DNA from: Vicinamibacteria bacterium
Lineage (GTDB): Bacteria; Acidobacteriota; Vicinamibacteria; Marinacidobacterales; Marinacidobacteraceae
Direction of reading: 5' to 3'
DNA length: 64,000 nucleotides
NCBI GenBank assembly: GCA_964291235.2
Contig: OZ219816.1
Location: 576,001-640,000 of the forward strand
In this document: positions 51,799-55,325 of the stretch, in pieces
Position numbering within the stretch: position 1 is the first letter of the stretch
Layout: every line of letters starts with the position of its first letter
Position numbers and translations under genes: made by a program
The notes under the pieces: generated by a model
Seen by the model: only the letters and a program-made list of their open reading frames with translations
The model's database searches: none
What the model was told of the DNA's origin: nothing

Positions 51799-51802
<4 letters not shown>
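51158..51802 (-). CDS. hisIE: Bifunctional PR-AMP cyclohydrolase / PR-ATP pyrophosphatase
   Basis: [26 protein letters not shown] and DLLYH motifs. Confidence 0.96.
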
Positions 51803-52602
<800 letters not shown>

Positions 52603-52654: not shown

Positions 52655-53395
52655 ATGGACCCGACGCTGCCGCTGCACCCGGGAGGGGGATCGGTTCCTT
52701 CGCAGGGGCCCAGCCAGGAAATCCGCGCCCGGCGCGACCGCATCCGGGAGCAGGTGGGGAGCGAGCGGTGGCGGGCGTCCCGCGACCTGCTGGTGGTGGA
52801 AGCCGCCCGGGCGACGCTGCAACTGACCGGGACAGCCATCCCGGAAACGGAACTCCGGGCTGCTGTCGAGGGAGCGCCCACCGCCACCTTCGCCCCGGCG
52901 CTCGGGGCGCTCCGCCTGCTCCAGCGGGCGGCGGCGGACCGGGATCCCACCCGGGAGCTGATTCGTGAGGTTCACGCGGTTTCCGCCGGGGAAGCCGGAG
53001 CGAGTCCCTTCCGCGGCCACCAGATCGAGCCGCAGTTCCAGGGCGCGGGCCTCTCTCCCCCGCAGACCATTGAAATCCGGCTCGCCGAGCTTCTCGAATG
53101 GATTTCGGGGACCAGCGGTCAGGATCTCGAAACCGCGCCGCGCGCGGCCCTCTTCTTCGCCCGGTTCCTCGAGATCTCTCCTTTCGTGCGCGCCAACTTC
53201 CGGGTGGCGCACCTGATGCTCACCTTCTTCACGCTCGCCGACGACCAGCCGCCCGTCTGGTTCGAGGCGGAGGATGCGCCCGGTATCCGCGACGATGTCT
53301 CGCGGGCCTTCCGCTTCGACACGGGTCCCCTGACGGCGCGCATCGAGAGTTCCCTCCACCGCTCCCTCGACCGTGTCTCGGGTCCGGAGAGTTAA
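52655..53395 (+). CDS. Fic/Fido-fold protein with degenerate active site
   Basis: ELIREVH, FRG and FLEISPFVRANFRVAHL, versus canonical HPFxDGNGRxxR. Confidence 0.7.
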   Translation: MDPTLPLHPGGGSVPSQGPSQEIRARRDRIREQVGSERWRASRDLLVVEAARATLQLTGTAIPETELRAAVEGAPTATFAPALGALRLLQRAAADRDPTRELIREVHAVSAGEAGASPFRGHQIEPQFQGAGLSPPQTIEIRLAELLEWISGTSGQDLETAPRAALFFARFLEISPFVRANFRVAHLMLTFFTLADDQPPVWFEAEDAPGIRDDVSRAFRFDTGPLTARIESSLHRSLDRVSGPES

Positions 53396-53630
53396 GAGCC
53401 CATGGCAAAACCCGCGCCCCCCCACCGGGAGAACTGGCACTTCGCGGCGCGTAGCGTCGCGGGGGTGGGGTGCGGGGAGGGGTTTCCCCTCCCCGTGAAA
53501 GACGATGCTGCGAATCGCACAGCGATTCGCAGCATCAACTCGTGGTGAAAGCGCCCCGCACGCACGCAAACCACGGATTTGGTGCGCGAGATCTCCTGGG
53601 GCTCGTGCGGGGTGCTTTCACCACGGGCTG
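53396..53630. mobile_element. MITE-like element, copy 2, flanked by TTAA
   Basis: TTAA at 53392-53395 and 53631-53634; ends GAGCCCATGGCAAAA / TTTCACCACGGGCTG; internal perfect hairpins. Confidence 0.75.
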
Positions 53631-53702
53631 TTAATCGCCCGCTACAATCCGAAGCATCGGGTGATGCGGGGGCTTCCTCCCGGCTCCGCCCCGATATCCG
53701 AA

Positions 53703-53993
53703 ATGTTTCTGTGGTTCGGGCTACCCGGCTCTCTCGTCTCCGGCGTTGCCGGCCTTGGGGCGATGCTCCAGCAGCGGCAGACGGTCGAGTTCGTCACTCT
53801 CCCGAACCCCGAGCCGCCCCGCGGAATCCTGACGCTGATCCTGGAGTCCTTCGCGCTTGCCGGGACACTCCTGCTGGGAACGGTGCTGGTCGGACTCGGT
53901 TTCGGACTCTTCCGAATCTGGCTCATCCGCCGGTATCCGGACAACCGCTTCAACGGAAGCGGACGGGACACTCCCCGGCTCGACCTCAGTTGA
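53703..53993 (+). CDS. Small membrane protein (start uncertain)
   Basis: Hydrophobic segment LILESFALAGTLLLGTVLVGLGFGLF; TACAAT upstream at ~53643; stop overlaps the next start. Confidence 0.6.
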   Translation: MFLWFGLPGSLVSGVAGLGAMLQQRQTVEFVTLPNPEPPRGILTLILESFALAGTLLLGTVLVGLGFGLFRIWLIRRYPDNRFNGSGRDTPRLDLS

Positions 53994-54406
53994 GCGCGGC
54001 GGCGGATCTCCGGACCCCCGACCCGGTTCCCCTGGTCATCTATGACGGGGGCTGAGGTTTTTGCACACGCGCCGCGGTCGCGGCGGCCCGTTTCGCCGGC
54101 GATCGGCCGATTCGGTTTGCCGCTCACCAGGAACTGACGGACGACCGGCTGGCCGAGCTCGGCATCTCGCGGACGGCATGTGAGAGGCGGGTCCGGTTCC
54201 GGGATCCACGAGGCCGCTTTCACGGCGGGGCCTTCGCCGTGAACCGATTTCTGCTCTACGCCGCGCCGCCGGGGCTCCCGGGGTTTCCCTCCCGGGCGCT
54301 CGCGCTCCTCTGCTACGCGTTCCCGCCGCTGCTCCTCGCCGAACTCCTCGCCTACGAACTCGTCGCGCGGAACCGCGACTGCCGTCTGCTCAATCCGTCC
54401 GATTAG
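53990..54406 (+). CDS. DCC1-like (DUF393) thiol-disulfide oxidoreductase with in-frame TGA (putative selenocysteine) at 54053-54055
   Basis: Manual translation LVIYDGG[TGA]GFCTR...GGAFAVN...AYELVARNR; 138 codons; TTG overlaps the upstream TGA. Confidence 0.82.
54056..54085 (+). promoter_or_regulatory. Putative bacterial SECIS hairpin
   Basis: CGCCGC-GGTC-GCGGCG (54070-54085); apical loop 20 nt after the TGA and starting with G. Confidence 0.65.
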
Positions 54407-54446
54407 ACGGTATCCTGCCCCACCGACCTATCCGAGGAGATTTCCC

Positions 54447-55325
54447 ATGTCCCGCTTTCGTTCCCTGACCCTCGCCTGCGCTCCGCTGCCGCTCCTCCTG
54501 GCCTGTGGCGCCCCTCCCGCCGAGGCGCCGATGGCCCCCCCCACGGTCGCGGTGGACGACCAGCCGGCCGGGGAATACGTTCGTTTTGCCGGCGCTTCGG
54601 GCGGGGCCGCCTGGGGCCGTATCGAAGGCGAAGAGATCGTGGTCCTGGGCGCGGCTCCCTGGGACGGCGGGGCGCCCACCGGAGAGCGGGTGGCGCGTTC
54701 CGGCGCCCGCCTGCTGGCGCCTGCCGACCCCGGCAAGGTGATCGCGATCGGTCTCAACTACGCCTCCCATCTTGGGGACCGCGAGCCGGCTTCCTATCCG
54801 GGGGTCTTCGCGAAGCTGCCGACGAGCATCGTGGGGCCGGGCGACGCGATCGAGATGACCGATGATGCCGGCAACGTCCACTACGAAGGCGAACTGGTGG
54901 TCGTGATCGGCAAGACGGCGCAGGACGTCTCCGTGGACCAGGCCCAGGACTACGTCTTCGGCGTGACCGCGGGCAACGACGTGAGCGAACGCGATTGGCA
55001 GGGCGCCGACCTCCAGTGGTTCCGGGCGAAGGCCTCCGACACCTACGGGCCGATCGGGCCAGTGATTTCCCGCGGCGTCAACTACGACGACCTCGAACTC
55101 ACGACCCGGCTGAACGGCGAAGTCGTGCAGCAGCAGCGCACCAGCGACCTGATCTTCGACACCAGCGACATCGTGAGTTACGTGAGCCGCTACGTGACGC
55201 TGATGCCCGGCGATGTCATCTTCACCGGGACCCCCGGCACCACCCAGGCGATGAACGAAGGGGACATGGTGTCGGTGGAGGTCGAGACGGTGGGCGTGCT
55301 CGAGAACCCGGTCGCCCGTCGCTAG
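54447..55325 (+). CDS. Fumarylacetoacetate hydrolase family protein with lipoprotein signal
   Basis: GLNYASH, HYEGEL, GNDVSERD and TGTPG motifs; lipobox LLACG; GAGGAG RBS. Confidence 0.9.
   Translation: MSRFRSLTLACAPLPLLLACGAPPAEAPMAPPTVAVDDQPAGEYVRFAGASGGAAWGRIEGEEIVVLGAAPWDGGAPTGERVARSGARLLAPADPGKVIAIGLNYASHLGDREPASYPGVFAKLPTSIVGPGDAIEMTDDAGNVHYEGELVVVIGKTAQDVSVDQAQDYVFGVTAGNDVSERDWQGADLQWFRAKASDTYGPIGPVISRGVNYDDLELTTRLNGEVVQQQRTSDLIFDTSDIVSYVSRYVTLMPGDVIFTGTPGTTQAMNEGDMVSVEVETVGVLENPVARR

Follow-up and report, generated by a model that had tools for sequence, protein, structure and literature searches.

How is the in-frame TGA codon at positions 54053-54055 of this DNA read? The window analysed here, that is, the whole stretch of 64,000 nucleotides from contig OZ219816.1 of a Vicinamibacteria bacterium (GenBank assembly GCA_964291235.2; positions 576,001 to 640,000 of the forward strand), contains a gene of the DCC1/DUF393 family in which this TGA stands where the DxxCxxC motif has its first Cys; the codon may end the gene or encode selenocysteine (Sec, U). 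The list of open reading frames (ORFs) made with translation table 11 has an entry at 53579..54055 that terminates with ...LVIYDGG at the TGA; past it the frame runs on with GGT TTT TGC, for 116 sense codons in total, to a TAG at 54404-54406, as an original prediction for this DNA had described. With TGA translated as U, the DCC1-like (PF04134) gene occupies 53990..54406 on the plus strand and has 138 codons (TTG start, Sec-UGA as codon 22, TAG stop); the 138-residue product has the motif D19-G-G-U22-G-F-C25 and one Sec (UxxC). The prediction also had the protein ending in AYELVARNR; this motif is present near the C-terminus but is not its very end, nine final codons (DCRLLNPSD) coming after it. 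We consider it very probable that 53990-54406 is a working DCC1-like selenoprotein gene with UGA 54053 read as Sec; the family score, the Sec machinery of the genome, the TGA/TGC alternation among relatives and a conserved downstream hairpin all agree with the DxxUxxC selenoprotein that had been proposed.

The redox motif of the DCC1/DUF393 family is an N-terminal DxxCxxC and its C-terminal motif is Y...A.NR; named Cys-type members include Arabidopsis DCC1 and Bacillus subtilis YuxK. The read-through protein (U read as C) matches the Pfam DCC1-like family (PF04134) with 39.1 bits (cut-off 27.8; E 2.1e-9); the match joins residues 16-129 to model positions 1-107 of 113, that is, the domain spans the TGA, and the family assignment of the original prediction is upheld by a score above the cut-off across that position. 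In an alignment of 19 sequences (A2; 15 Sec-form and 4 Cys-form), the D, both G, the U/C column and the second C of the redox motif are invariant; the last of these (column C13) is the resolving cysteine C25 of UxxC (TGC, 54062..54064, plus strand), encoded by TGC in 14/15 and by TGT in 1/15 Sec-form sequences. At the C-terminus (Y-E-L-V-A-R-N-R), columns Y110, E111, A114, R115, N116 and R117 are invariant. The Cys-type proteins thus have in common with the present one the Pfam domain, the (Y)DGxCxxC motif, the C-terminal Y..ARNR and a similar length; they differ in that their first motif Cys is encoded by TGC or TGT and followed by variable sequence, whereas the present gene has UGA and a conserved hairpin in the coding sequence of the predicted helix alpha1.

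We searched 41 genomes, including the source genome (G000), in six frames for orthologues of the DCC gene and obtained matches in 26. All 15 genomes of the same genus have a match with TGA inside it (15/15; in G015 only a partial piece at a contig end); all nine genomes of six other genera of the family have a match as well, none with TGA (0/9); and the 16 genomes of two other families of the order yielded a single match (38% identity), also without TGA. The Cys-form orthologues of the sister genera are 53-68% identical. At the nucleotide level 19 of the 20 returned loci were read (L039 from G021, a Cys form with no stops, was dropped here and from the tree described below, the motif search having found nothing): the redox codon is TGA in 15 sequences, that is, the own genome and 14 others, and TGC in four sister-genus sequences. 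The alternation of TGA and Cys codons that the original prediction had asked for at this column is therefore found, with TGA within the genus and TGC in sister genera. Three further Cys forms were obtained from named genomes, giving seven close Cys forms; 14 TGA loci from named genomes are identical to loci already counted and are not extra support. The named genomes with the same gene are metagenome-assembled genomes (MAGs) labelled Acidobacteriota, Vicinamibacteria or "Candidatus Marinacidobacterium". We also retrieved 41 distant Cys forms with a Cys-containing pattern; these are Cys forms by construction. A scan of metagenomes for the exact YDGG-TGA-GFC coding pattern gave five stretches, three of which come from this clade and share its hairpin.

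Could this be a pseudogene, or could a mistake in sequencing or assembly have put the TGA into a Cys-type gene? Gene callers would truncate it at 54055, as expected for either. However, the same TGA is present in 15/15 genomes of the genus and in the three metagenome contigs of the clade; in particular, the assemblies of 14 other genomes of the genus have it, which disposes of the error in a single assembly that the original prediction had named as a danger. Alignment of the 15 TGA sequences showed no gaps, frameshifts or additional stops. One study, which may be where this DNA came from, has contigs in two runs that agree with the window with zero differences. A 229-nt contig of a second study over 54033-54093 has five other letters, none of them listed at 54053-54055 (a weak observation, near the contig ends), and the gene body is outside the coverage of a third study's contigs. 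The ratio of nonsynonymous to synonymous substitution rates (dN/dS) among the 15 orthologues is 0.075 for codons -9..-1, 0.113 for codons +1..+61 and 0.130 for codons +62..+112, with dS of 0.7-1.06 across the gene, that is, near saturation (the mean for codons +12..+61 is 1.06); dN/dS near 0.1 before and after the TGA indicates that both sides are translated in this frame. We give the pseudogene or error explanation almost no credence. Separately, in runs X1 and X2 a second contig, of 1319 nt, matches only 54070-54105 (36 nt) with five differences and hence represents a similar GC-rich stretch elsewhere in that sample.

The selection data also bear on the TGA as a true stop. Termination would leave a 21-residue peptide and a separately initiated C-terminal protein without the first redox residue, and an in-frame GTG at 54239 does open a 55-aa ORF; however, the 61 codons after the TGA contain no in-frame ATG, GTG or TTG (the GTG at 54239 is the next candidate), and these start-less codons are the ones under purifying selection at dN/dS 0.113 and encode the Pfam domain's conserved core. 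The C-terminal piece alone would also be without most of the predicted thioredoxin-like fold. We judge termination at this codon extremely unlikely.

The original prediction had pointed to a hairpin, CGCCGC-GGTC-GCGGCG, with its loop 20 nt past the TGA, and the coordinates agree: at 54070..54085 (plus strand) a 6-bp stem with arms CGCCGC (54070-54075) and GCGGCG (54080-54085) encloses the loop GGTC (54076-54079; GGUC in the RNA), which is nt 24-27 when counted from the U of UGA; folded alone, the hairpin has -10.8 kcal/mol. This site was picked from the sequence alone, before any relatives were compared. In the relatives, 23 nt at 54068..54090 (plus strand) are identical in 15/15 TGA forms and flanking third positions vary freely; conservation of the downstream hairpin in homologues had been expected, and it is nucleotide-identical in every TGA form. 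We propose this invariant block as the core of a bacterial selenocysteine insertion sequence (SECIS) element. Of the seven codons +5..+11, which encode R A A V A A A and are all four- or six-fold degenerate, none changes among the TGA forms (7/7 columns codon-invariant); elsewhere in the gene, columns with an invariant residue are codon-invariant in only 2/47 (Fisher p = 2e-7, a value that overstates independence, the 15 genomes being kin). The Cys forms differ from the TGA forms in residues and nucleotides at the position of the block.

The loop was predicted to resemble that of Escherichia coli fdhF in containing GGUC, and the predicted apical loop of fdhF is indeed GGUC (nt 22-25, with the U of UGA as nt 1). 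In E. coli K-12 fdhF (TGA = codon 140), as here, the element lies inside the coding region; the UGA-to-loop spacing is 18 nt in fdhF and 20 nt here. The stem here is unrelated in sequence to the fdhF stem and the gene family is different; also, the fdhF element has a bulged U, of which the perfect 6-bp stem here gives no sign. The legend of Figure 2 in a recent review (Zhang et al., 2026; PMC13188914) gives constraints for bacterial SECIS (bSECIS) elements: a loop of 3-9 nt with G in its first two positions, an upper stem of 4-16 bp, 16-37 nt from UGA to loop and a minimum free energy of -7.5 kcal/mol or lower. The hairpin lies within all four as given there (a 4-nt GG-first loop, 6 bp, 20 nt and -10.8 kcal/mol).

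The reading of the UGA as Sec also depends on the genome. The source genome (3.45 Mb, 2 contigs) encodes a tRNA-Sec (selC) with 69.7 bits (cut-off 47; called SeC(tca) by ARAGORN), as well as selA (498 bits), selB (311 bits, C-terminal part included) and selD (249 bits), all above the curated cut-offs; the search for selA, selB, selC and selD that had been recommended thus found all four. A single TGA at a known Sec position occurs in 2/10 AhpC/TSA matches and in 1/3 CMD matches of this genome, and we list these as three candidate selenoprotein genes: a peroxiredoxin (Prx)-like UxxC protein with GGW-U-PFC (L138, G000:C2:1341210-1341599), a Prx TxxU protein with WTGG-U (L141, G000:C2:1804116-1804565) and an AhpD-like CxxU protein with CHY-U (L148, G000:C1:714906-715127). 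In all three a hairpin follows the UGA, with 22-27 nt from the U of that codon to the loop; two of the loops are G-rich (GGC, GGGUC..), and the Prx TxxU loop (ACA/UACAA) is without the usual G. The alpha subunit of formate dehydrogenase, FdhA (TIGR01553), has no match in the genome, which is 90% complete; if FdhA is absent, the Sec trait would be kept by redox selenoproteins alone. As an observation on the machinery itself, SelD (L019:220-2556, G000:C1) shares a 778-aa ORF with a Pyr_redox_2 domain (pyridine nucleotide-disulphide oxidoreductase; 109 bits), which makes up the N-terminal half, SelD being the C-terminal part; the ORF runs through without an in-frame stop, which means that SelD here is not a selenoprotein in its own right.

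These data also address the possibility that the UGA is decoded, but not as Sec, that is, by near-cognate read-through (Trp, Cys or Arg) helped by the hairpin or by a lineage-wide reassignment. Structures downstream of a stop codon can stimulate read-through, which lends this idea some plausibility. However, TGA is the stop codon of the gene immediately upstream in 15/15 Sec loci, and UGA is therefore not reassigned; the codon aligns with a catalytic Cys and not with Trp or Gly; the genome has the Sec system in full, and TGA also stands at the known Sec positions of three other genes from known selenoprotein families; and the GG-first apical loop and its spacing fit the SelB-dependent model. 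Decoding as another amino acid is very unlikely; insertion of Sec remains the preferred reading.

Several results weigh against a selenoprotein gene at 53990-54406, and in particular against the hairpin as its SECIS element, in addition to the kinship of the 15 genomes mentioned above. The 60 nt past the TGA fold with -22.4 kcal/mol (z = +1.09), and 182/200 shuffles fold equally well or better; folding energy was rejected as evidence for a SECIS element, the region being no stabler than shuffles. In a scan with our own simplified implementation of the published constraints, a loose bSECIS hairpin follows 158 of the 1060 TGA trinucleotides on both strands of the window (14.9%) and also follows the Cys codon in 5/7 close and 3/15 distant Cys forms; loose hairpins being this frequent, the bSECIS model alone does not discriminate in a GC-rich lineage. 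A strict hairpin (6 or more Watson-Crick pairs; loop no longer than 5 nt and beginning with GG or GU) follows 6 of the 1060. RNAalifold retains 5/6 stem pairs among the 15 TGA forms but detects zero compensatory pairs and no covariation, because the block never varies. An Rfam scan of 53900-54500 at E <= 10 returned five chance-level matches and no SECIS family. The source genome is incomplete (90% by marker count, as noted for FdhA). The AlphaFold2 model of the DCC protein (19 sequences) is moderate in quality, with a predicted local distance difference test score (pLDDT) of 71.4 and a predicted template-modelling score (pTM) of 0.62, and when it was compared with the PDB by Foldseek, no structure reached E <= 0.001. 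Finally, incorporation of selenium in the DCC protein is proposed from sequence comparison.

The model predicts the order beta-alpha-beta...beta-beta-alpha, as in thioredoxin-like folds, and places U (position 10 of the modelled segment) at the N-terminus of a helix at 11-24. The top Foldseek matches in the PDB all have glutaredoxin, thioredoxin, glutathione S-transferase (GST) or protein disulphide isomerase (PDI) folds, the best being glutaredoxins (E 0.035-0.08; TM 0.33-0.38 for the top matches); this is a weak hint that the fold may be thioredoxin-like.

As for the hairpin, the case for a putative SECIS element is one of comparison with relatives and not of the hairpin alone, and comparison also bears on the idea that the 23-nt block is conserved for some other reason, such as a protein- or DNA-level signal, with the hairpin incidental. 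Alanine-rich, GC-rich coding sequence readily forms hairpins, and the nearest Cys sister (L038 in G019) has one of 5 bp with a GGCC loop 23 nt past its Cys codon. However, synonymous sites are frozen in the TGA forms only and in this block only; two unrelated DCC-family genes from metagenomes (L149 and L152), with TGA at the same column, differ in sequence and yet have their own hairpins with G-first loops 16 and 26 nt after the UGA; and the three other candidate Sec genes of the genome likewise have a hairpin past the UGA (the Prx TxxU loop being the one without G). We regard another cause of the conservation as highly unlikely and keep the block as the proposed SECIS core. The hairpin of L038 lies in an alanine-rich helix-coding segment, where the residues are R-L-A-A-A-A-A as compared with R-A-A-V-A-A-A here; it may be a pre-adaptation for the evolution of a SECIS element or may reflect chance in GC-rich sequence.

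The mechanism that we propose is ordinary bacterial Sec recoding, not a new kind. The DCC mRNA would present UGA in place of the first redox Cys codon; SelB with GTP and Sec-tRNA(Sec) would bind the GGUC hairpin 20 nt downstream when the UGA occupies the A site; instead of terminating, the ribosome would insert Sec at residue 22, the hairpin itself being inside the coding sequence of the predicted helix alpha1. The U22-x-x-C25 pair at the N-terminus of this first helix would then cycle between selenol/thiol and selenenylsulfide. We infer the insertion of Sec, the binding of SelB, this redox chemistry and the action on a substrate from the comparisons given above.

The UxxC gene does not stand alone on the genome. 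Immediately upstream, on the plus strand, is a gene for a small hydrophobic protein (53703..53993, start uncertain) that always adjoins the DCC gene and may be its partner. Its protein matches no family in Pfam; its C-terminal ~70 residues (...RGILTLILESFALAGTLLLGTVL.GLG.G.FR.WL.RRYP.N.FNGSGRD.PRLDLS) are conserved at 15/15 Sec loci and at 3/4 Cys loci (at the Cys locus L040 the upstream gene was not recovered by the search script). Its stop codon, TGA at 53991-53993, overlaps the probable TTG start of the DCC gene (53990..53992, plus strand) as TTGA; the overlap is TTGA in 15/15 Sec loci and CTGA in 2/4 Cys loci (L038 and L041). In 15/15 Sec loci, 21-27 codons separate a TTG from the Sec TGA downstream of it; this TTG comes behind a conserved cggctcgaYctSag, and in 13/15 it is the sole ATG, GTG or TTG of that stretch (L028 and L031 add a GTG 7 codons before the TGA); judged from this conservation, translation probably starts at TTG 53990. 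With the start of one gene overlapping the stop of the other, translational coupling is likely, the two genes being translated as a pair, and the upstream membrane protein and the DCC protein could possibly form a functional pair. At the Cys loci L040 and L041 there is no ATG, GTG or TTG from the in-frame upstream stop to the redox motif; these DCC genes may start at CTG through termination-reinitiation.

The other flanking genes belong to the Fic/DOC, FAA-hydrolase and M20 peptidase families and have no clear functional link to the DCC gene. The ORF with the Fic/DOC domain (29.6 bits; 246 aa; 52655-53395, plus strand) is two genes upstream, and a minus-strand ORF at 51799-52602 overlaps the end of the plus-strand ORF that precedes it.

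When did the Sec form arise? The 15 Sec rows group together in a single clade (support 89/96) when 29 distinct sequences are placed in a maximum-likelihood tree, and this clade is nested in successive Cys branches of its own family, that is, L038, then L040 with L041, then L042. Because the Sec clade is nested within Cys forms, the tree fits one switch from Cys to Sec at the base of the genus, with the root taken outside the family; the Sec form would thus have a single origin, from a Cys ancestor and at the base of a marine Vicinamibacteria genus (Acidobacteriota). The genus is marine and, judged by the names of the isolates, often associated with sponges or corals. The metagenome genes L149 and L152, whose C-terminal motifs are VYDWVARNR and VYGWVARHR, indicate that Sec forms of DCC exist in other lineages with their own SECIS elements. 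Since the present clade is nested in the Cys forms of its own family and has its own hairpin sequence, it looks like a switch separate from those of the other Sec-form DCC genes.

In a phylum-wide search with PF04134, 221/401 genomes have a DCC1-like match, a tally that includes two unpublished genomes (G064 and G192), which enter into no other result here. There is no TGA among the 150 matches listed; 113 weaker ones, the range into which the present gene's own 2.6e-11 falls, lie outside these 150, and the search therefore sets no bound on the spread of Sec forms in the phylum. The source genome has a second, distant DCC1-like match (G000:C1:476625-477032; 35% identity) with no stop, within a 486-aa open frame, and similar weak second matches occur in several genomes of the same genus.

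Is the DCC family already among the known selenoproteins? New UxxC-type selenoprotein families are reported regularly. Table 1 of the review by Zhang et al. (2026; PMC13188914) gives domain identifiers for 119 families and subfamilies of selenoproteins; the terms DCC, DUF393 and PF04134 are absent from its main text and from these 119 rows. The read-through protein has no match at E <= 0.01 among the NCBIfam models, including the selenoprotein-specific models of that table. The view in the original prediction that DUF393 is not a standard selenoprotein family is therefore borne out as far as this table and these models extend. The main texts of BSepDB (PMC13326102) and deep-Sep (PMC12013277) contain none of the three terms, although the family could be listed in their Tables S2. 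A literature search pairing selenoprotein or selenocysteine with DUF393, DCC or DCC1-like gave no relevant paper (the groundwater-MAG list of Deng et al. could hold the family), and a search on selenoproteins of sponges or Acidobacteriota gave nothing relevant among the matches listed.

Among the known UxxC selenoproteins with a thioredoxin fold in Table 1 of PMC13188914 are Sec-thioredoxin, Sec-glutaredoxin, the Prx-like thiol:disulfide oxidoreductase, the DsbA-like protein and redoxin. These are like the DCC form in that Sec replaces the N-terminal Cys of CxxC where a helix begins, homologues with Cys are plentiful and the SECIS element is just 3' of the UGA; one of them, the Prx-like UxxC type, also has a candidate gene in the source genome. 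The DCC form differs in belonging to another protein family.

The DCC selenoprotein adds a marine acidobacterial lineage to a family that is absent from the published catalogues examined, and its recognition adds a family with a predicted thioredoxin fold to a list of bacterial selenoproteins that, in the table of PMC13188914, has 119 families and subfamilies and none from DCC. Gene callers end the gene at codon 22, and public annotation of the whole genus therefore has the protein as a fragment or not at all. The Sec/Cys pair identifies residue 22 as the nucleophile in catalysis by the DCC family. The position of the Sec forms within the Cys forms and the absence of synonymous change in the hairpin together provide a compact system for studying the evolution of Sec recoding. 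We lean slightly towards a broader view, in which DCC1-like proteins are a real uncatalogued selenoprotein family with repeated Cys-to-Sec switches and this genus offers a clean before-and-after series, the SECIS element having been built by a few substitutions in hairpin-prone, alanine-rich helix-coding sequence and then frozen at all synonymous sites; if the repeated switches and the frozen SECIS element are true, the family would be a natural model for the joint origin of a SECIS element within a coding region and the Sec codon that it serves.

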